Positions 3,577 through 12,018 of a stretch of 64,000 nucleotides of DNA are shown here, one piece after another. The notes below the pieces were generated by a model. That model made no database searches. It was given only the letters and a program-made list of their open reading frames with translations, and was not told the origin of the DNA. Source of the stretch: Deltaproteobacteria bacterium (GTDB taxonomy: Bacteria; Myxococcota_A; UBA9160; SMWR01); assembly GCA_031405455.1 (NCBI GenBank), contig JANNIY010000130.1:974-64973 (forward strand). Reading direction: 5' to 3'. The position numbers and the translations under genes were made by a program. Position 1 is the stretch's first letter. The number at the start of each line of letters is the position of its first letter.

Positions 3577-4725
3577 ATGCGCGACGCTTCTCCCCTGCGT
3601 CCCCGGGCGCTCCCCGAGTTCGCAGACGTGCGCTCCCTTGCCGACCCTCGTCGGGGCCCTCTCGTCTCGCTCTACCTGCCGTTGCTGCGCGGCTTTCCGC
3701 ACGTGCGGCAGAACGCAGCCGCCTACCAGGGCGCCGTCGCGGAAGCCGAACTCCGACTCCAAGCCGCTGGCCTGTCCCCAGGCGAGGCCGCAGCCTCCGG
3801 CGAACAGCTCGCCGCCGTCGAAACGGATCTCCGGCGCTTCGAGCGCCGCGCGGCAGGCGTCGCCGTCTTTCGCGACCGCGCAACCCTTCACGCCTATGGC
3901 CTTCAGCAGGAGCCCGCGCGCTGCGTGATGGTTGCGGACAACTTTGCCCTGCGTCCGCTGCTGGCGGCCGTGCACCGCGACCGGCGCTACCACGTACTCG
4001 CGCTGTCGACGAATCGCGTTGCACTGTTCAAGGGGGATGCCTTCGGGCTGGCGACGATCCTGGCGCAGGGTGTACCCGCAAGCTTGGAGGATGCACTGGG
4101 GACCGAGCTGACCGCCAAGGAGCTACGCGTCAGTGGAACCCAAGCGGGCGCTGCCTCGCCGCGCTACTTCAGCCACGACAGCGGCCGCGACGAGCGCAAG
4201 CTCGATCTCAAGCGCTTTCATCTGCGAATCGCGCGCGCGATCGAGGCAGAACTCGTGGGCTGCGATGAGCCCCTCATCCTGGTCGCGGCACAAGCTCACC
4301 ATTCGGGATTGCGCGCCGCGCTGCGCCTGCCGTGCCTGCTTCCCACGGGTGTGGAGACCAGCCCAGATCATCTTTCGACGAGCGACCTGCACGCGCGTAC
4401 CTGGCCGCTCGTCGACGACGCCAGCGACGCAGAAGACGCGGCACTGGCGAGCGAGTACGAGGGCTTCGTCGCTCGCGGCAAGGGTCTGCACCGCATCAGC
4501 GACGTCGCGGCGGCCTCCGCTGCCGGGCGCGTACACCGGCTCTGGGTGACTCGCGACGAACGTCTGCCGGGGGCGATCGATCCCGCGAGCGGCGTGCTCG
4601 TCGGAGGCCGCCCCGAGGAGGACGTGCTCGACGGCATCGTCAGCCTGGTGCTGCGCCACGGCGGCGACGTGATCGTCAGCCGCTGCGTCCCGTCCGGCTC
4701 GAGCGTCGCAGCGGAGCTGCGCTGA
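3577..4725 (+). CDS. baeRF3-like protein (bacterial archaeo-eukaryotic release-factor family)
   Basis: 382 aa. Recalled family hallmarks are present: GPLVSLYLP near the N-terminus, RRYHVLALSTNRVALFKG in the middle, PLILVAAQ, and an acidic C-terminal domain. No database search was possible, so the family assignment is from memory. Confidence 0.6.
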   Translation: MRDASPLRPRALPEFADVRSLADPRRGPLVSLYLPLLRGFPHVRQNAAAYQGAVAEAELRLQAAGLSPGEAAASGEQLAAVETDLRRFERRAAGVAVFRDRATLHAYGLQQEPARCVMVADNFALRPLLAAVHRDRRYHVLALSTNRVALFKGDAFGLATILAQGVPASLEDALGTELTAKELRVSGTQAGAASPRYFSHDSGRDERKLDLKRFHLRIARAIEAELVGCDEPLILVAAQAHHSGLRAALRLPCLLPTGVETSPDHLSTSDLHARTWPLVDDASDAEDAALASEYEGFVARGKGLHRISDVAAASAAGRVHRLWVTRDERLPGAIDPASGVLVGGRPEEDVLDGIVSLVLRHGGDVIVSRCVPSGSSVAAELR

Positions 4726-4807
4726 TCCCATCCGCCCCGCCGCGCCGCCAGCACGGGACCTTCTGTCTCGCTCCGGACTCCGTGCGTGCCGTGCGTTCAT
4801 CTCGAAA

Positions 4808-4823
4808 CGGCACGCGTCTTGCT
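4808..4823 (+). promoter_or_regulatory. Sigma-54 type -24/-12 match (site C)
   Basis: CGGCACGCGTCTTGCT lies 50 nt upstream of the ATG at 4872. A strong SD (GGAGGGGAGAG) sits between them. Confidence 0.6.
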
Positions 4824-4871
4824 CCTCTACGCGGAGAGCGCAGCCAATCGCCTGCGCCAGGAGGGGAGAGC

Positions 4872-5078
4872 ATGCATCGCTCCGAAAGCGACCAGGGAAC
4901 CTCTTGCGCGGACTGCGGAGCGGCAGTTCTTGCGGGTGCGGAGGCCGGCTTCGACTTCGCTGAGGATGCCACGCTGTGCGCGAGCTGCGCGGCAAGGCGC
5001 GGTGGCTCCTACGACGCCCATCAGGAGCGCTGGGTGCGTCCGCCGCGAATCGCTGACCTCCTCGACGAGCCGCGCTGA
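4872..5078 (+). CDS. Small hypothetical protein with a CxxC...CxxC (Zn-ribbon-like) motif
   Basis: 68 aa: MHRSESDQGTSCADCGAAV...LCASCAARRG. The SD GGAGGGGAGAG is upstream. It lies inside the longer track ORF 4332-5078. Confidence 0.5.
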   Translation: MHRSESDQGTSCADCGAAVLAGAEAGFDFAEDATLCASCAARRGGSYDAHQERWVRPPRIADLLDEPR

Positions 5079-5122
5079 GCTGCGGCGCAAGCCAACGGCT
5101 TGCTGGGAACTCACCGAAGCAG

Positions 5123-5401
5123 GTGCAATCGGTGATGTCGCCCGAAGTACACACCTACAGGCCCGGCGATTCCATCGAAGACGTCGAGGCGACCCTGCGT
5201 CGCGCCCGGATCCGCCGTCTGCCCGTGGTCGACGAAGCCAAGCAACTGGTCGGAATCGTCTCGCTATCGGATTTGGCGCGGGCCGCGGCCCACTGTCGCC
5301 AGCAGAAGAAGCCCGCGGTCGGCGAGGCTGCCGTCGCGGAGACGCTCGCAGCCATCTGCCAGCCGCGGGAAACGGCGCCCCCTGAAGGCGCTGGAGACTG
5401 A
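5123..5401 (+). CDS. CBS domain protein (only one clear CBS repeat)
   Basis: VMSPEVHTYRPGDSIEDVEATLRRARIRRLPVVDEAKQLVGIVSLSDLARAA is a canonical single CBS motif. At 92 aa it is about half the usual CBS pair. Confidence 0.7.
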   Translation: MQSVMSPEVHTYRPGDSIEDVEATLRRARIRRLPVVDEAKQLVGIVSLSDLARAAAHCRQQKKPAVGEAAVAETLAAICQPRETAPPEGAGD

Positions 5402-5475
5402 GTCCAGCCCTTGCAAAACGCCAGGGCGAAGAGCACGCTCCGGCCGGGTTTTTCAACCATTGGAGGGAGTTTTAG

Positions 5476-5742
5476 ATGCGACGAGAACTAATCGCCGGCG
5501 CTGTCGCGGTAGGGATGCTCGGATTGGCGGGCTGCGCGACCAATGGCGACGTGGAAAAGATCAACAGCCGGCTCGATGCGCTCGACCAGCGAGTCGCGGG
5601 CGTCGAGACCGCTGCGCGCAACGCCGAGAGCCGCGCCACCGCCGCCGAGCAGGCTGCGGCCGACGCGCGGCGTGCCGCGCAGGCCGCCGAGGACTCGGCC
5701 CGCAAGTCCGAAGCGATCTTCCAGAAGCGGATCTCGAAGTAG
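5476..5742 (+). CDS. Braun-lipoprotein-like (Lpp-like) alanine-zipper lipoprotein
   Basis: SD GGAGGGAG is followed by the ATG. The signal carries lipobox LAGC. An Ala/Gln/Arg-rich coiled coil follows and the protein ends in a C-terminal Lys (KRISK), parallel to E. coli Lpp (LAGC...YRK). Confidence 0.85.
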   Translation: MRRELIAGAVAVGMLGLAGCATNGDVEKINSRLDALDQRVAGVETAARNAESRATAAEQAAADARRAAQAAEDSARKSEAIFQKRISK

Positions 5743-6660
5743 CCGACCCATTGGAGCGGTCTCTGGCGGCGGCAGCGTGCCCACCCGGGTGGGCACGCCG
5801 TTCGCGCGCGCGATCACACGCCGCACGGCAGCGATGTCTACGCGCTCGCCAAGACCGAGCGCTCGAGGCGTTTCGAGCGCCGCCGCCAGGGGGTCGGAGA
5901 TCCGACTGTAGACGTCCGGGTGCGCCTCGAGGAGCAGCTGGTCGCCTTCGCGCCCCCATTTGTACGGCTGGTAGACCAGCTGTAGCCGGGTACCCTCGCG
6001 AACGCGATCGTAGAGTCGGACGATGTCCTCCTCGTAGAATCGGACACAGCCGTGCGTCGCAATGCGCCCGATCGACCAGCGGACGTTGGTGCCGTGGAGC
6101 CCGTAGCTCGACGTCCCGATCGTCATCCAACGACTGCCGAGCGGGTTGTCGGGCCCGGGTGGAACGACGGCGGGGAGTTCGGGCTTGACCGCGCGAATCG
6201 ACGCCGGCACCCGCCACTCCGGCTCGCTGCGCTTCGCTCCGACGCGGTATTCGCCGACGGGCGTCGGATCGTCGGCATCGCCGATCGCCACGGCGAACAC
6301 CTCGGGGCCGTCCTCGACGCCGAAATCGTAGAGACGCATTTCCGGGATGTTCACGACGAGGCCCGCGGGCACCGCCTGCGGCAGCAGATAGCGCGTGGGG
6401 AGCCGCACGACCGTGCCGGGGTCGGGGATCCACGGGTCGAGGCCGGGATTCAACCGCGACACCGCTTCGAAGCCGAGCCGATGGCGCGCGGCGACGTCGA
6501 GCAACGTATCGTCGGGCAGCACGAAATCCGTCTGCACGACGCCCAGCGGCGGACGCAGAGCCGCGTAGACGTCGACTTCGGTTTCGCCCGCCGGGGGCGC
6601 GGCGCTCGCGCGCGCGGCGATCAGCAGCAAGGCGAGCGCCAGCCCGGGCGCCTGCCTGCG
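5488..6660 (-). CDS. L,D-transpeptidase with LysM-like + YkuD domains (ErfK/YbiS/YcfS architecture)
   Basis: LysM-like segment DTLLDVAARHRLGFEAVSRLNPGLDPWIPDPGTVVRLP. The YkuD core is SYGLHGTNVRWSIGRIATHGCVRF. The signal-like segment is RRQAPGLALALLLIAARASA. The 5' end is unresolved because no ATG/GTG/TTG lies near the signal. The frame has no stop before 5488. Confidence 0.8.
   Translation of the reverse strand, partial: RRQAPGLALALLLIAARASAAPPAGETEVDVYAALRPPLGVVQTDFVLPDDTLLDVAARHRLGFEAVSRLNPGLDPWIPDPGTVVRLPTRYLLPQAVPAGLVVNIPEMRLYDFGVEDGPEVFAVAIGDADDPTPVGEYRVGAKRSEPEWRVPASIRAVKPELPAVVPPGPDNPLGSRWMTIGTSSYGLHGTNVRWSIGRIATHGCVRFYEEDIVRLYDRVREGTRLQLVYQPYKWGREGDQLLLEAHPDVYSRISDPLAAALETPRALGLGERVDIAAVRRVIARANGVPTRVGTLPPPETAPMGRLLRDPLLEDRFGLAGRVLGGLRGTPRVGRSLLGGGGAALGVARSGLDARDSLVERIEPAVDLFHVAIGRAARQSEHPYRDSAGD
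5774..5797. terminator. Perfect 24-nt palindrome between convergent lpp-like and ldt genes
   Basis: GCGTGCCCACCCGGGTGGGCACGC lies 32 nt after the lpp-like stop. There is no U-tract, so it could be a bidirectional hairpin terminator or a protein-binding palindrome. Confidence 0.5.
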
Positions 6661-7272
6661 CCCGCGGCCGCGCTGCTCCTCGGCCTCTGGCTGGCCGGCT
6701 GCGCAGCCACTGCGCCCGCGCCGCCAGTCGCTTCTGCGCCCGGCGCACTCGACGGCTCGACCCCGCTGACGAGCGACGTAGCGTGCCCGCGCATCCAGTA
6801 CATCCTGATCCGCAAGCGCGAGCACCAGCTCGTGGCACGTTGCGAATCGGGGACGATGATCGTGATGACCGTCGCCATCGGCCGCGATCCCATCGGGACG
6901 AAGCAGGCGCACGGCGATCAACGCACGCCCGAGGGCAATTACCGGGTTTCCGGGTCGGCTCGTCACAGTCGTTTCCACCGCCTGATCCCCATCGACTATC
7001 CGTCGCGGCGCGACGCCGACGCGGCGCTCGCACGCGGCACGCTCACCGTGAGCGAGCATGCACGCATCGTCGCTGCGCACGCGCAAACTCGCACACCGCC
7101 GCAGGATACCGCGCTCGGCGGGCACCTTGGGCTGCATGGCGAGGGTCGGGAGTGGCGCGGCGAATCAGCGGGACTCGACTGGACGTACGGCTGCGTAGCG
7201 GTGCGCGACCATGAGATCGAATTCCTCGCACGGCGGGTGAGCCGCGGAACGTCCGTCTGGATCCTGCCGTAG
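6652..7272 (+). CDS. YafK-like L,D-transpeptidase-fold lipoprotein
   Basis: Lipobox LWLAGC. Motifs IQYILIRKREHQLVARCESG, GDQRTPEGNYRV, IPIDYPSRRD and HGEG...TYGCVAV parallel E. coli YafK (DpaA)-type proteins. The start codon is unresolved: in-frame CTG at 6652 or ATG at 6481. Confidence 0.7.
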   Translation: MPAPAAALLLGLWLAGCAATAPAPPVASAPGALDGSTPLTSDVACPRIQYILIRKREHQLVARCESGTMIVMTVAIGRDPIGTKQAHGDQRTPEGNYRVSGSARHSRFHRLIPIDYPSRRDADAALARGTLTVSEHARIVAAHAQTRTPPQDTALGGHLGLHGEGREWRGESAGLDWTYGCVAVRDHEIEFLARRVSRGTSVWILP

Positions 7273-7314: not shown

Positions 7315-8580
7315 TCAACCGGCGGAGGGGCCAGGCGAGTCGGCCCCGGGAAAGGCGACACGAAATTCGGTGCTCTCGCCGGGGGTGCTCGTCGCAGCGA
7401 TCGTCCCGCCGTGATCGGTCACGATGCCTTGGGCCACCATCAACCCCAGACCGTTGCCCTCGCCAGCCGGCTTCGTGGTGAAAAAAGGCTCGAAGATGCG
7501 CGGCAGATCTTGCTCGGCGATACCGGCGCCGGTGTCGGCGACACACAGCTCGATGCGACCCTCGGAGCCCGGGTGCAGCGATACGTGCAGGGTGCCGCCA
7601 TTCGGCATCGCGTCGGCGGCGTTGAGGAACAGATTCAAGAAGAGCTGTTGTAGCCGCTCGGGATCCGCGATCAGGCTCGGCGTCGGTTCGAACGCGCGCT
7701 CGACCTCGATACCGCGCCGCTTGAGCTTCTCCGACACGAAGGACAACGTGGTCTCGAGCAGCGGCTCGAGCGCAATCGGCACCCGCCGCCGGCGCCCCGG
7801 CCGCGCCATGTTGAGCAGCGTCTGGATGATCTTCGAGATGCGGGCGATCTGCTCCTGGATCGTCCGCAGCCGCCAGCGCGCCTGCTCGCCCGTCACCTCG
7901 GGCTCGAGCAGCTTCGCGTGCCCCTGGATCACGCCCATGGGCGTGCCGATTTCGTGGGCGAGCCCGGCGACCAGCGTGGCGATCGAAGCCAGCTCTTCCG
8001 CGGCCTTCGCCCGCGAGGCGGTCTGACGCAGCTCGGAGCCCTGCTCCTCGAAATCGCGCGCGAGGCGACGACTCTGCGCCTCGAGTTCGTGGGTGAGATA
8101 CTCGAGCCCGCTGTCGTGATCCTCGATGTACGCCTCGAGCGCGATCTGGGCGTCGAGCATCAGGAGTTTCTGGAGCGCGACCACCGTGCGCATCGCTCGC
8201 TCCGGGTCGGCCGCGTAGGTATCGAAGATCAGGGGTGTGAGCAGGGAGAGGTAGCCGGCGTAGGCGCCGAGGTACCAACGCGGCTCGAGACCGATCTTCT
8301 GGTGCACCTCGCCGATGCGCCGGCGCTGGGCGACAAAATCCTCGTCGAAGGTCGGGTTCGCGAGGCTGAGCAGATACTCGCGCTGCTTGATGAGGAGGCG
8401 TTCCTTCACTCCCGGCTCGCGGAGCAGCTCGCGGGTCGGGCCAAAGGAGAGCAGATTGCGATAGAAGGCCGCCACGAAACTCGCGGCGTTGCGCTCGAGG
8501 GCAGGCCCGAGCGCAGCGAGCAACTCCACGTCCGCCGCTGTCATTCCCAGGTAGCTGAGCTGCTGCTGAAGCTTGTTCAC
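7315..8580 (-). CDS. Globin-coupled sensor histidine kinase
   Basis: The N-terminal protoglobin/GCS-like domain reads FVAAFYRNLLSF...RRRIGEVHQKIGLEPRWYLGAYAGYL, with a candidate proximal His. The H-box is LAHEIGTPMG, the N-box NLFLNAADAM and the G-boxes DTGAGI / GNGLGLMVA. Start is a GTG at 8580 or an ATG at 8544/8676. Confidence 0.85.
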   Translation of the reverse strand: MNKLQQQLSYLGMTAADVELLAALGPALERNAASFVAAFYRNLLSFGPTRELLREPGVKERLLIKQREYLLSLANPTFDEDFVAQRRRIGEVHQKIGLEPRWYLGAYAGYLSLLTPLIFDTYAADPERAMRTVVALQKLLMLDAQIALEAYIEDHDSGLEYLTHELEAQSRRLARDFEEQGSELRQTASRAKAAEELASIATLVAGLAHEIGTPMGVIQGHAKLLEPEVTGEQARWRLRTIQEQIARISKIIQTLLNMARPGRRRRVPIALEPLLETTLSFVSEKLKRRGIEVERAFEPTPSLIADPERLQQLFLNLFLNAADAMPNGGTLHVSLHPGSEGRIELCVADTGAGIAEQDLPRIFEPFFTTKPAGEGNGLGLMVAQGIVTDHGGTIAATSTPGESTEFRVAFPGADSPGPSAG

Positions 8581-8726
8581 TCCCCACAGGGTCGGCGTCA
8601 CAGCCGGCAGAGTCAATGGCGGCCGCCCCCCCTCGCCCCACTCCCCCCGCCTGCTCGCAGGGGCGCTTCGACTCACCAGAGCCGCCCGCAGCGACGCAAC
8701 GCGGCGCCTGGCGGGTCGCGACCGCT

Positions 8727-8742
8727 TGGCACATCGAATGCA
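8727..8742 (+). promoter_or_regulatory. Sigma-54 type -24/-12 match (site D)
   Basis: TGGCACATCGAATGCA. The -12 C is 16 nt upstream of the ATG at 8757. Confidence 0.5.
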
Positions 8743-8756
8743 CCGGGAGTCGGCTC

Positions 8757-9230
8757 ATGCAGCGGGTCCCTACGCCGGAACGCACCCCCACCGCAATTCG
8801 CGAGCCGCGAAGCCCGCGCGTGCGCGACGTCATGCGGCGCGACTTCATCACGATTTCGCAGCAGGAGAGCGTGCTCGAGGCCCTGGAGCTGATGCGGCTC
8901 GCGCGCCTGCGTCATCTGACGATCGCCGATCAAGGCGTGCTGATCGGAATCCTCAGCTACCGAGACCTTCAAGACGAGCTGCTCGCACAGATCGACCCGG
9001 CGGCGGGGTTCCAGGGCGAGCCCGCGGTCCAACATTCCGCGGCCGTCGAGCACGTCTCGGGCTCTCCCTACTCGATCAGCCCGGATGCGACGCTTGCCGA
9101 AGCGGCGGCCCGGCTCGAGCGACTCCGCGTCGGCTGTCTGCCGGTCGTCGAACCGGGGGAACAGGGTCTGCGGGTCGTGGGCCTGCTCACGGAGATGGAT
9201 CTGCTGCGCGCCGCCTTTCAGACGCCCTGA
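8757..9230 (+). CDS. CBS domain pair protein
   Basis: Two CBS repeats: VRDVMRRDFITISQQESVLEALELM...LIGILSYRDL and VSGSPYSISPDATLAEAAARLERLRVGCLPVV...VVGLLTEMDLL. Confidence 0.85.
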   Translation: MQRVPTPERTPTAIREPRSPRVRDVMRRDFITISQQESVLEALELMRLARLRHLTIADQGVLIGILSYRDLQDELLAQIDPAAGFQGEPAVQHSAAVEHVSGSPYSISPDATLAEAAARLERLRVGCLPVVEPGEQGLRVVGLLTEMDLLRAAFQTP

Positions 9231-9268
9231 GGCGAAGCCCGCAGGAACGCGGTACCCCCTCCGCGATC

Positions 9269-10705
9269 ATGGAATCGCTCGCCGCACAGTTCGTCGCAGG
9301 ACTCGCTCGCGGGGCGGCGGACCCCGCACTCCTGCGGAGCGCCGGCGAGCCCGAGCCCGAGGCCGCCGCGGCGGCGTTTCAACGCGCGGCGCGCGACCGC
9401 GACCTCGCGAATTCGCACGCGCAGTGGGCGCCCGTGCTCTTGCGCACCGCGCGCCCCGGTTTCGGCGCGCAGTGCCTCGAGGAGATCGCGCAACGCGCGC
9501 GCGAGCGAACCGGGGGGCGCCTCGACATTGCAGGCTGCCCGGCGCTGCCCCACGTGCTCGGCTCGAGCAGCTTTCTCGCGCGTTTGCTGCTGCGCCATCC
9601 GGAGTGGATCCGCGAGATTGCAGGCGCACTCCCCGACGCGCCTCCCCCTCGCGCAATCGATCCGGATTGGGACGCGATCCGCGCGGCGAAGTACACCGGG
9701 CTGTTGCGCATCGCCGCGCGCGATCTGCTCGCGCGTCCCTTCGCGAACAGCCTGCGCGAACTCTCGGACCTCGCCGATCGCTGTCTCGCCGCGGCGCTCG
9801 CGTGCGCCGCGCGGGAGACCGAGGTCGAGGCGCCGGCCCTGCTCGCGCTCGGAAAGCTCGGAGGCCACGAGCTCAACTTTTCCTCCGACGTCGATCTGCT
9901 CTTCGTCTACGAACCCCCGCCGACGGTCGACCCGCTCGAACACAATCACGCCGTCGCGCGCCTGATTCGACGTCTGAAGACGGCGCTCGAGGTGCGCAGC
10001 GAAGACGGCTTCGGCTATCGCGTCGATCTGGGGCTGCGCCCCGAAGCCGACACCGGTGTGCTCGCAAATCCGGTCGACGTCGCGATCGGATACTACGAGG
10101 GCTTTGGCGCGGAATGGGAACGTCAAATGCTGATCCGCTTGCGCCACGTCGCCGGACCGGCCGACGTGGGCGAAGGTTTTGCGCGGGAGATCGCGCCATT
10201 CGTATACCGGCGGCTGATCGACCCCGGGGTCATGCGCTCTGTGCGCGACATGAAGGCGCGCATCGAGGACGAGCGTCGCAGCGCGGGGCGGGACCTCGAA
10301 TTCGACCTGAAGGAGGGGCCCGGCGGGATCCGCGATGTCGAGTTCCTCGTGCAGTCGCTCCAGCTCTTCTTCGGCGGCCGCGATCTCGCGCTGCGCACGG
10401 GCAACGTGCTCGCAGCGCTGGCGGCCCTCGCGCAGCTCGGACACCTGCCGGAAGCGACCGCGGCTGCGCTGGTTTCGGCCTACACCTGGTTGCGACGCGC
10501 CGAGCATGCGCTGCAGCTCGCGGAGGAGCATCAGACGGCCCGCTTCCCGAGCGACCGCGCCGGCCAGATCGCGCTGGCGCGGCGCATGGGTTACCCGGAG
10601 GCGGAAGCCGAGGCGGCGCGGACCGGACTGCTCGAAGACCGGATGGCCGCGCGCAGCGAGGTGCGCGCGCACTTCGAGGCGCTGGTGCTGCGGGAAGGCG
10701 AGTGA
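9269..10705 (+). CDS. glnE: Glutamine synthetase adenylyltransferase, N-terminal (adenylyl-removing) half
   Basis: GlnE-type nucleotidyltransferase motif GKLGGHELNFSSDVDLLFVY plus GlnE-family helical regions. It ends in TGA at 10703-10705, at the position of the inter-domain linker of full-length GlnE. Confidence 0.85.
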   Translation: MESLAAQFVAGLARGAADPALLRSAGEPEPEAAAAAFQRAARDRDLANSHAQWAPVLLRTARPGFGAQCLEEIAQRARERTGGRLDIAGCPALPHVLGSSSFLARLLLRHPEWIREIAGALPDAPPPRAIDPDWDAIRAAKYTGLLRIAARDLLARPFANSLRELSDLADRCLAAALACAARETEVEAPALLALGKLGGHELNFSSDVDLLFVYEPPPTVDPLEHNHAVARLIRRLKTALEVRSEDGFGYRVDLGLRPEADTGVLANPVDVAIGYYEGFGAEWERQMLIRLRHVAGPADVGEGFAREIAPFVYRRLIDPGVMRSVRDMKARIEDERRSAGRDLEFDLKEGPGGIRDVEFLVQSLQLFFGGRDLALRTGNVLAALAALAQLGHLPEATAAALVSAYTWLRRAEHALQLAEEHQTARFPSDRAGQIALARRMGYPEAEAEAARTGLLEDRMAARSEVRAHFEALVLREGE

Positions 10706-12018
10706 CGGAGACCCTCGCGCAGCGGCTGCGCGGAGCGCTCGCGGGCTCGCCCCTCGCCGAGCGCCTCGCGACGGCAGCGGCGCCGTTGCTCGAGCGCCGT
10801 TCGGAAGACGCCGCCGTGCGACGTCTCGCAGGCCCTGCCCTCACCGGCCTCGCGCGCGGCGTCGCGACACAACCCGAATTCGCCGGCTTCCTATCGCATC
10901 GTCCGGAGCTGCTCGAGCGCATCGCGCAGGCGAACGCGGAAACGCTCGGCCGCCGCGCCAGCGAACTCGCTGCGAGCGCGCAGGCGGAAACGTCCGGCGA
11001 TCTCGAGAGCGAGCTCGATGCGCTGCGCCTGCTGCGTCGCGAGGAGACCGCGATCGCAGTCTGCTGCGATTTTGGCGGATTGGCGGCGTTCGAGCAGGTG
11101 TCGGCCTTTCTCTCGATCCTCGCCGAAACGATCACGGCGCGCGCCCTGCGGCTCGCGCGACGCGGCCCCGGCTTGTCGCGGCAGACCTTTGCGGCGATCG
11201 GAATGGGCAAGATCGCCGGGCGCGAGTTCACCCATCACTCGGATCTCGACTTGATTTTTCTCTACCAGGGGGGACCCGATGAAGTCGCGCTGGCTTCCAA
11301 GATCGGACAACGCCTGATCGCCTACCTCACGACGATGACGGGCGCCGGCATCGCCTACGCCGTCGACACGCGCTTGCGTCCCTCGGGCCAGAAGGGAATG
11401 CTCGTCACCTCGTTCGAGGGCTTCACGCGCTACCAGCGCGAGACCGCAGAAACCTGGGAGCATCTGGCACTGCTGCGCTCGCGCCCGATCGCAGGGGAGC
11501 TGACGATCGCGAACGAGGTCCTGGACGACGTGCGCCACTTCATCCTGCGCGGCGGGCAGAAGCCGTGGCCCTACCTCGCCGATCTGCGCGCGCGCGTCGA
11601 GCGCGAGCGTGCGAAGGAGGATGCCACGCAGCTCGCCTTCAAGACGGGTGCTGGCGGCCTGATGGACGTCGATTTTCTTGCCGGCGGCGGGCTGCTCGAA
11701 CGGGGCACCCGGAACTTTCCGGCGTTCCCGAGCGTCGCCGCGATGCTCGCCTGCACGCTCCCGGCGGCAGCAACGCAGAGATTGCTCGCCGACTACGGCT
11801 GGCTGCGCCGCAGCGAGGCGCGTGCGCGCTGGGTCGCGGGCCGGGCCGTCGAGGAGATCCCGGCGGGGGGCGAGTCGTTGGTCGCGATTGCGGAACTCAG
11901 CGAACCCGGCCTTGCCCCCGCGGCGCTGCTCGACCAGATCCGCGCCGTGCGCCGTCGGATCCGCGCCGCCTATCAGGCGGTCGTCGACGCCGAAACGATC
12001 ACCGCGTTCCCGGGTTGA
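10702..12018 (+). CDS. glnE: Glutamine synthetase adenylyltransferase, C-terminal (adenylyltransferase) half
   Basis: The GTG at 10702 overlaps the upstream stop (GTGA). A second NTase motif, GMGKIAGREFTHHSDLDLIFLY, and RLRPSGQKG are present. Confidence 0.8.
   Translation: MTETLAQRLRGALAGSPLAERLATAAAPLLERRSEDAAVRRLAGPALTGLARGVATQPEFAGFLSHRPELLERIAQANAETLGRRASELAASAQAETSGDLESELDALRLLRREETAIAVCCDFGGLAAFEQVSAFLSILAETITARALRLARRGPGLSRQTFAAIGMGKIAGREFTHHSDLDLIFLYQGGPDEVALASKIGQRLIAYLTTMTGAGIAYAVDTRLRPSGQKGMLVTSFEGFTRYQRETAETWEHLALLRSRPIAGELTIANEVLDDVRHFILRGGQKPWPYLADLRARVERERAKEDATQLAFKTGAGGLMDVDFLAGGGLLERGTRNFPAFPSVAAMLACTLPAAATQRLLADYGWLRRSEARARWVAGRAVEEIPAGGESLVAIAELSEPGLAPAALLDQIRAVRRRIRAAYQAVVDAETITAFPG

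Follow-up and report, generated by a model that had tools for sequence, protein, structure and literature searches.

Covalent attachment of the outer membrane to peptidoglycan through a coiled-coil lipoprotein is established in Escherichia coli, where the system consists of Lpp, the L,D-transpeptidases LdtA, LdtB and LdtC, and DpaA. A second system was described in Pseudomonas aeruginosa, in which the transpeptidase LdtPae2 anchors the lipoprotein OprI and the release of OprI was tentatively assigned to the YafK-like LdtPae3 (Hugonnet et al. 2023, PMC10434034). Here, we describe an uncultured Myxococcota-affiliated soil bacterium with adjacent genes for an Lpp/OprI-type lipoprotein, an L,D-transpeptidase and a DpaA/YafK-like protein, which we consider a probable, though by no means certain, reversible tether of the same type. 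The locus lies in a stretch of 64,000 nucleotides (nt) from contig JANNIY010000130.1 (assembly GCA_031405455.1, positions 974 to 64,973 of the forward strand), hereafter called the window. The three open reading frames (ORFs) of the region 5476 to 7272 were verified at these coordinates, and the three-gene locus exists as it had been described in the initial annotation of the stretch.

Two widely cited surveys report Braun-type covalent tethering to be limited to a subset of the Gammaproteobacteria, and the initial annotation likewise treated it as a trait of that class. The published surveys do say so, but they arrived at this view because PF04728 was their sole search profile. According to a 2025 preprint, the model myxobacterium M. 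xanthus has no Lpp-like protein. Our literature search returned no paper on OprI-type lipoproteins or on such a cassette outside the Gammaproteobacteria, and none on adjacency of oprI and ldt genes in Pseudomonas. In P. aeruginosa, oprI (PA2853) probably adjoins PA2854. In other lineages, YkuD enzymes also join outer-membrane proteins to meso-diaminopimelic acid (mDAP), as known for beta-barrel proteins of Alphaproteobacteria and for the Coxiella lipoprotein LimB, and DpaA-like detaching enzymes have been proposed there. Those proteins are attached via an N-terminal Gly or Ala or via an internal Lys, and are unlike alanine-zipper lipoproteins with a C-terminal Lys.

The window has a GC content of 64-71%. 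The closest relatives of all three proteins were found in metagenome-assembled genomes (MAGs) labelled Myxococcota, uncultured delta proteobacterium or Deltaproteobacteria bacterium, in line with the non-enterobacterial origin assumed initially, and the same MAGs share the synteny of flanking genes (GlnE, CBS, globin-coupled kinase, baeRF and cytochrome c).

Lipoprotein of the Lpp/OprI family

The lipoprotein gene, termed lpp in the following, occupies positions 5476 to 5742 of the forward strand and starts with ATG; a Shine-Dalgarno-like GGAGGGAG, read from the sequence at positions 5462 to 5469, ends 6 nt before it. Its product of 88 amino acids (aa), MRRELIAGAVAVGMLGLAGC followed by ATNGDVEKINSRLDALDQRVAGVETAARNAESRATAAEQAAADARRAAQAAEDSARKSEAIFQKRISK, has a lipoprotein signal peptide (...GMLGLAGC-ATNG) with the lipobox LAGC, of which Cys20 is invariant in the alignment of homologues, and a C-terminus reading ...FQKRISK with Lys88 as its last residue. 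The protein scored 32.8 bits against Pfam PF11839 (Alanine_zipper, the OprI family; gathering cut-off 23.1) and 55 bits against NCBIfam NF040598, "Lpp/OprI family alanine-zipper lipoprotein" (cut-off 43), a model name from which it is evident that Lpp and OprI already count as a single broad family among curators. The assignment to a PF04728-like family, as initially suggested, was not borne out: PF04728 (LPP) was not reported at E<=1 in the Pfam scan, and the E. coli Lpp model PRK15396 gave 25.7 bits, under its cut-off of 108 bits. Judged by these profiles, the small protein is an Lpp/OprI family member of the OprI type (PF11839), not of the PF04728 type. It shares both family assignments and the C-terminal Lys with OprI of P. 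aeruginosa.

Aligned by hhalign with E. coli Lpp, which is likewise a coiled-coil lipoprotein with a terminal Lys, the homologue profile gave a probability of 94.7% and 31% identity over 67 columns of 78 residues. An unbroken 3-4 heptad register runs through about eight heptads from I29 to F82, with hydrophobic or Ala residues at positions a and d (I29, L33, L36, V40, V43, A47, A50, A54, A57, A61, A64, A68, A71, A75, S78 and F82). Ala fills the nine successive a/d positions from A47 to A75, and A47, A57, A64, A68 and A71 are invariant across the alignment. The mature lipoprotein is a coiled coil of 69 residues, unlike E. coli Lpp with 58. All elements of the Lpp blueprint named in the initial annotation, i.e., the LAGC lipobox, the alanine-zipper register and the C-terminal Lys, were therefore found.

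Conservation of the terminal Lys in orthologues, on which that annotation had made its proposal depend, proved to be high. K88 is invariant in 11 aligned homologues, and Lys is the last residue of all full-length homologues checked and of all loci inspected. When an Lpp-like profile was run in a full HMMER scan, 435 clusters at 50% identity were obtained (E<=1e-3), and among the 150 best of these 435 family representatives, 144 have a C-terminal Lys and 136 a lipobox-like motif.

A gene opposite an over-extended reading frame

The minus-strand ORF of the neighbouring transpeptidase has no stop until position 5488 and runs in the codon-aligned antisense frame over the entire lpp. It is this long ORF of 549 aa (positions 5488 to 7137; P0008) that public gene calls contain, and throughout the clade the gene calls of Logan, ENA, NCBI and JGI contain a protein of 370-550 aa and omit lpp; in Logan contigs identical to the window, the YafK-like gene is likewise left uncalled. 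The exact 88-aa sequence is absent from a collection of 15 billion proteins. All this would also be expected if the 88-aa ORF were an antisense shadow of the annotated transpeptidase ORF and not a gene, the more so as a genome of 69% GC will rarely have stops in the codon-aligned antisense frame. Such an artefact was rejected by codon-position analysis of six related loci (the window, L003, L004, L020, L021 and L022), in which variable sites at lpp codon positions 1, 2 and 3 numbered 7, 6 and 36, and codon differences were 232 synonymous versus 80 non-synonymous in the lpp frame, against 27 synonymous versus 285 non-synonymous in the antisense frame. Because substitutions and codon differences favour the lpp frame in this way, it is the selected frame: purifying selection acts on lpp and not on the antisense tail. 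The exceeded cut-offs of curated families and the strong Shine-Dalgarno sequence point in the same direction, as do distant relatives, in which the transpeptidase terminates normally and the small gene is called on its own, and we regard the shadow explanation as barely conceivable. Gene annotation misses lpp because the stop-less transpeptidase ORF overlies it and gene callers take the ORF of 549 aa.

The run-on tail of the transpeptidase ORF comprises about 91 codons (positions 5488 to 5763, minus strand, stop codon at 5488-5490), without an earlier in-frame stop. It is shared by all close relatives, which stem from independent samples, but is read in a different frame in P0021, P0024 and P0029. 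It matches no Pfam family and was modelled by AlphaFold at a predicted local distance difference test (pLDDT) score of about 30 without secondary structure, while residues ~10-280 of the same model exceed 90. In the distant relatives L001, L002, L009 and L011, the transpeptidase stops normally, 15-20 codons past a conserved G.P..VG motif; L009 and L011 have this stop a short way past that of lpp, and in L001 and L002 it falls within the lpp gene, about 22 nt from its 3' end. The clade of the window has thus lost the transpeptidase stop, and the tail is not a functional domain. An open antisense frame is expected here, since the GC content at third codon positions of lpp is 0.88 and antisense stops need the rare codons TTA, CTA and TCA.

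Between the two genes lies a GC-rich hairpin, GCGTGCCCAC-CCGG-GTGGGCACGC, with a perfect stem of 10 bp (positions 5775 to 5798), which starts 32 nt past the lpp stop codon and falls inside the transpeptidase codons for GVPTRVGT. Its stems are identical in the six related loci, including wobble positions, and only the loop varies; distant relatives have different, equally strong hairpins at the same place. The hairpin has no T-tract and is not reported by a simple terminator scan. It is probably the shared terminator of the convergent pair, read through by the ribosome that translates ldt. One could ask whether the missing stop itself serves a function, either through a real tail domain or through termination at the hairpin that would leave a non-stop ldt messenger RNA, in which case transfer-messenger RNA would couple the level of the writer to transcription of lpp. 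Loss of the stop in every close relative and the preservation of the stems at six wobble positions, while about one in two third positions of lpp is variable among the six loci, would fit such a role. As the tail is free of purifying selection, shifted in frame in three relatives, predicted to be disordered and unrelated to any family, as its frame is expected to be open anyway, and as preferred GC-rich codons could account for the wobble conservation, we consider a functional run-on very unlikely.

The convergent L,D-transpeptidase

The homologous part of the transpeptidase extends over positions 5764 to 6642 of the minus strand, with the hydrophobic core of a signal peptide at ~6603-6642 and the codon of the catalytic Cys (THGCVR) at 6046-6048; its C-terminal domain ends with ...GVPTRVGTLPPP. 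The protein matches the YkuD profile PF03734 with E=6.6e-22. Its active site HGTNVRWSIGRIATHGCVR (HGTN...ATHGCVR) fits the pattern (S/T)xGChR with the Arg typical of transpeptidases, a motif found as SxGChR in the anchoring YkuD enzyme LdtPae2, and H199, H213, G214, C215 and R217 are invariant in 24 homologues. A deviation from this pattern was seen in the long transpeptidase of a Pseudogulbenkiania MAG (L013, positions 4386 to 5963), which reads ASHGCLH and has His at Cys+2 instead of Arg or Asn.

In the PDB, the protein matched 9tyw_A (1e-48, extending through the C-terminal domain) and the Klebsiella pneumoniae transpeptidase 4lzh_A (4.5e-35). The enzyme is 38% identical to E. coli LdtB and 35% identical to LdtE, with 130 and 110 bits, and its best NCBIfam matches were the equivalog models of E. 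coli Ldt enzymes, PRK10190 with 127 bits (cut-off 517) and PRK10260 with 122 (583), followed by LdtE with 115 (480). By these scores, it is a homologue and not an equivalog of the described enzymes, and the profiles do not separate anchoring from cross-linking paralogues.

The initial annotation had credited the enzyme with the exact domain architecture of LdtA/B/C, which is supported structurally, but only weakly by profile hidden Markov models. The AlphaFold model superimposes on 4lzh over its full length, with a template modelling (TM) score of 0.78 and 277 of 278 columns. The N-terminal LysM-like domain reached only 14.6 bits (E=0.033) against Pfam LysM, below the cut-off of 20.9, covering profile positions 4-43 of 43; E. 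coli LdtB itself had no LysM match in the same Pfam scan. The segment matches the LysM chains 4uz2 (1e-6) and 4xcm (5e-6) and was modelled as a beta-alpha-alpha-beta unit with pLDDT >90. Pfam Ldt_C (PF17969) was not matched by the window enzyme, unlike LdtB.

The divergent DpaA/YafK-like protein

The third gene (positions 6652 to 7272, forward strand) encodes a YkuD protein (E=1.4e-15 against YkuD) that is predicted to be a lipoprotein, with a lipobox LAGC at 6691-6702 (Cys codon 6700-6702) and a catalytic Cys codon at 7192-7194. The lipobox is kept in most relatives, and the presumed eraser would accordingly be membrane-anchored. The N-terminus of E. coli DpaA (MRKIALILAMLLIPCVSFAG...) is unlike a canonical lipobox. 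The active-site motif HGEGREWRGESAGLDWTYGCVA (HG...WTYGCVA) has Ala at Cys+2, and WT.GC[IV]A is found in all 14 other gene-bearing loci. DpaA-type hydrolases carry Ala or Asn, not Arg, two residues past the Cys (Winkle et al.; Hugonnet et al., PMC10434034), and the YafK-like LdtPae3 has the motif SxGChA.

Compared by hhalign with E. coli DpaA, the protein gave a probability of 93% (E=3.6e-7) over 109 columns (DpaA 44-158) that span the catalytic domain, as against 77% and only 43 columns with LdtB. The equivalents of DpaA K83 (an invariant Lys), R108, H135, C143 and A145 are conserved, and the position aligned with the Trp of the carboxypeptidase D-Ala pocket (DpaA M133) is occupied by Gly. 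The AlphaFold model has a YkuD fold with pLDDT 86.9, and homologues are labelled "murein L,D-transpeptidase YafK" by JGI. On this evidence, the third protein appears to be a distant DpaA/YafK relative with homology nearer to DpaA than to transpeptidases. The YafK-like nature proposed for it initially is retained insofar as the DpaA-type Ala and the hhalign result agree with it, but the relationship is a distant one, at 20 bits against a profile cut-off of 365.

Recurrence of the three genes

All three genes were found together in a "Deltaproteobacteria bacterium" (CP070734.1, L001), an ENA contig (L002), the Myxococcota MAGs DATBRV01 (L003/L005), DATFWW01 (L009) and JBNLVK01 (L011), an "uncultured delta proteobacterium" MAG (L004), which is the closest with 85% Lpp identity, further close relatives (L020-L022) and the betaproteobacterial Pseudogulbenkiania MAG (L013). 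In an unassigned metagenome lineage of 59% GC (L015-L017), the order is short-YkuD gene, lpp and convergent Ldt gene. Pairs of the lipoprotein and Ldt genes occur in Myxococcota (OZ245015.1, L006) and in a Desulfobacterales MAG (L012), and pairs of the lipoprotein and the short YkuD genes in alphaproteobacterial Geminicoccaceae and Rhodospirillales MAGs (L010, L014).

Because the trio or pairs of its genes recur across MAGs of Myxococcota, Desulfobacterales, Alphaproteobacteria and Betaproteobacteria, the trio is a conserved module and not a chance neighbourhood. Given its recurrence across several phyla, the cluster is not special to this contig. In a set of 26 metagenome loci, a YkuD gene adjoins every bona fide homologue whose flanks are long enough, apart from L036 and L037. 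These encode an 85-aa lipoprotein (3001-3258 in L036) ending in ...LLQKAAQK, with 36% identity and no YkuD gene within 3 kilobases, and are a counter-example to universal linkage.

Comparison with the described loci

In E. coli K-12, lpp is convergent with ldtE across a gap of 63 nt (L051, NC_000913.3, positions 1757421 to 1758725). The statement of the initial annotation that the genes are scattered in E. coli is partly right because of this pair: ldtB and dpaA are located elsewhere in the genome, away from lpp, but lpp itself adjoins an ldt gene. The orientation of lpp and ldt towards each other and a short shared 3' region with a terminator are common to E. coli and the window. In the window's clade, unlike E. 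coli, the gap has collapsed and the ldt ORF crosses the hairpin and the whole of lpp. Furthermore, LdtE is assigned to 3-3 cross-linking and not to anchoring of Lpp. The E. coli system also differs in that the DpaA-like protein of the window has two insertions and a lipobox. From P. aeruginosa, in which the three ldt genes have widely separated locus tags, the window differs in its contiguous genes, in the lipobox of its eraser and in its lineage, a Myxococcota-like MAG instead of Gammaproteobacteria.

Proposed function and alternative readings

Gene reality, family membership, catalytic motifs and a linkage conserved across lineages are established for this locus. Its localisation, the identity of the substrate and both enzyme activities we infer. 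We favour a reversible covalent tether between outer membrane and peptidoglycan of the Lpp/OprI type, in which both sides of the chemistry, writer and eraser, would be encoded next to the substrate. The prolipoprotein of 88 aa would be exported and lipidated on Cys20, with Ala at position +2 predicting Lol sorting to the outer membrane, and the mature lipoprotein of 69 residues would assemble as a trimeric alanine-zipper coiled coil. The transpeptidase would take a tetrapeptide stem as donor and form a Cys thioester at the carbonyl of mDAP3, which the epsilon-amine of Lys88 would resolve, so that the outer membrane would be covalently joined to the sacculus. It is the genomic linkage that suggests attachment of the lipoprotein Lys to the tripeptide stem by this enzyme. 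Since the transpeptidase Arg is missing from the short YkuD lipoprotein (TYGCVA), this protein most likely hydrolyses the mDAP-Lys amide in the manner of DpaA, which would render the tether reversible.

Several observations weigh against this interpretation. Biochemical support for the tether comes from other lineages only, namely E. coli and P. aeruginosa, and the lipoprotein ends with Ser-Lys, compared with Arg-Lys in Lpp and OprI. In the window, canonical start codons are missing next to the signal peptides of both YkuD genes. The paralogue encoded beside lpp in E. coli is the cross-linking enzyme LdtE, which raises the alternative that the transpeptidase is an LdtE-like 3-3 cross-linker and the lipoprotein a non-covalent or free coiled coil of the periplasm or outer membrane, the adjacency being inherited synteny without an enzyme-substrate relation; in keeping with this, anchoring and cross-linking enzymes do not fall into separate clades, and the scores against the LdtA, LdtB and LdtE models are similar (127, 122 and 115 bits). 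We nevertheless judge a cross-linker unlikely, as the near-universal terminal Lys of the lipoprotein family has no obvious rationale besides cross-linking, the convergent pair with its overlapping or abutting 3' ends is kept across distant lineages, a hydrolase-type YkuD gene travels with it, and the enzyme is slightly nearer to LdtB than to LdtE in bit score.

The reservations concerning the third protein are of a similar kind. Against NF040599 (LdtF_DpaA_YafK), it reached 20.3 bits, compared with an equivalog cut-off of 365 bits, with E=2.4e-4 and over profile positions 51-127 only, and a phmmer search with it found nothing in the PDB. Two insertions, 28 and 11 residues long, set it apart from DpaA, and of the DpaA cleft residues Y131 is replaced by H, with Y109 and K130 changed to F and G. 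Foldseek against the PDB ranked DpaA (8ikr_A) only 12th by E-value, although with the best TM scores (0.51/0.50) and identity (20%). L,D-carboxypeptidases are closely related to DpaA-like proteins and also lack the Arg, and DpaA homologues are widespread among bacteria that lack Lpp. Together with the weak similarity to DpaA, which Foldseek does not single out, this could mean that the short YkuD protein is a Csd6/Pgp2-type L,D-carboxypeptidase for the trimming of tetrapeptides, or an amidase that acts on other proteins bound to peptidoglycan, and not the eraser of the Lpp link. We find this rather unlikely in view of its genomic linkage to a Lys-terminated lipoprotein in many lineages, of the hhalign coverage of the whole DpaA catalytic domain with K83 conserved, and of the Gly that replaces the D-Ala-pocket Trp position; moreover, it is the sole YkuD gene seen in two alphaproteobacterial MAG contigs, which end shortly past the lipoprotein gene.

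Translation starts and flanking genes

The two divergent YkuD genes have their signal-peptide coding regions back to back in a segment of about 100 nt (~6600-6702). Candidate starts are CTG 6642, TTG 6630 and GTG 6825 for the transpeptidase and CTG 6652 or 6673 for the DpaA/YafK-like protein, whose sole canonical in-frame start is ATG 6481. In relatives, GTG or ATG starts were seen at non-conserved positions without a Shine-Dalgarno sequence, whereas the window has CTG only there, and in CP070734.1 the divergent start codons of both YkuD genes overlap by 2 nt. These observations point to initiation that is leaderless or unusual in another way, the promoters being situated within the opposite gene. 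A promoter and terminator scan and an Rfam scan of the window gave nothing relevant, and neither rRNA nor tRNA genes were detected within it by Rfam.

Upstream of the trio, genes for a baeRF-family protein (3577-4725), a Cys-rich ORF of 68 aa (4872-5078) and a small CBS-domain protein (5135-5401) were found on the forward strand. The other side carries genes for a protoglobin-coupled histidine kinase (7315-8676, minus strand) and, within the flank 7315-12018, a second CBS protein and GlnE. The synteny of all these genes is kept in related MAGs, and those at 3577-5401 and 7315-12018 have no evident functional link to the trio.

Implications

The Lpp/OprI-Ldt-DpaA system as such was already known, and its probable occurrence in a Myxococcota-like lineage is new. 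In our judgement, the chances are evenly balanced that a Lys-terminated OprI-type lipoprotein with its own writer and a DpaA-like eraser forms a compact cassette through Myxococcota, Desulfobacterota, Alphaproteobacteria and Betaproteobacteria, so that covalent tethering of the Lpp type would not be a gammaproteobacterial speciality. If this is true, the lpp-ldtE pair of E. coli would be a remnant of the cassette arrangement, and the cassette would have been overlooked through surveys using PF04728 only and through lipoprotein genes swallowed by over-extended antisense ORF calls in high-GC clades. The latter constitutes an annotation blind spot: because the stop-less convergent ORF masks the gene, a conserved and probably abundant envelope protein is missing from protein databases for a whole clade. 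With enzyme and substrate genes linked in a way that is convenient for heterologous reconstitution, the locus is a candidate for Lpp-type chemistry in Myxococcota-like bacteria and beyond, in a lineage for which the kit had not been described before.

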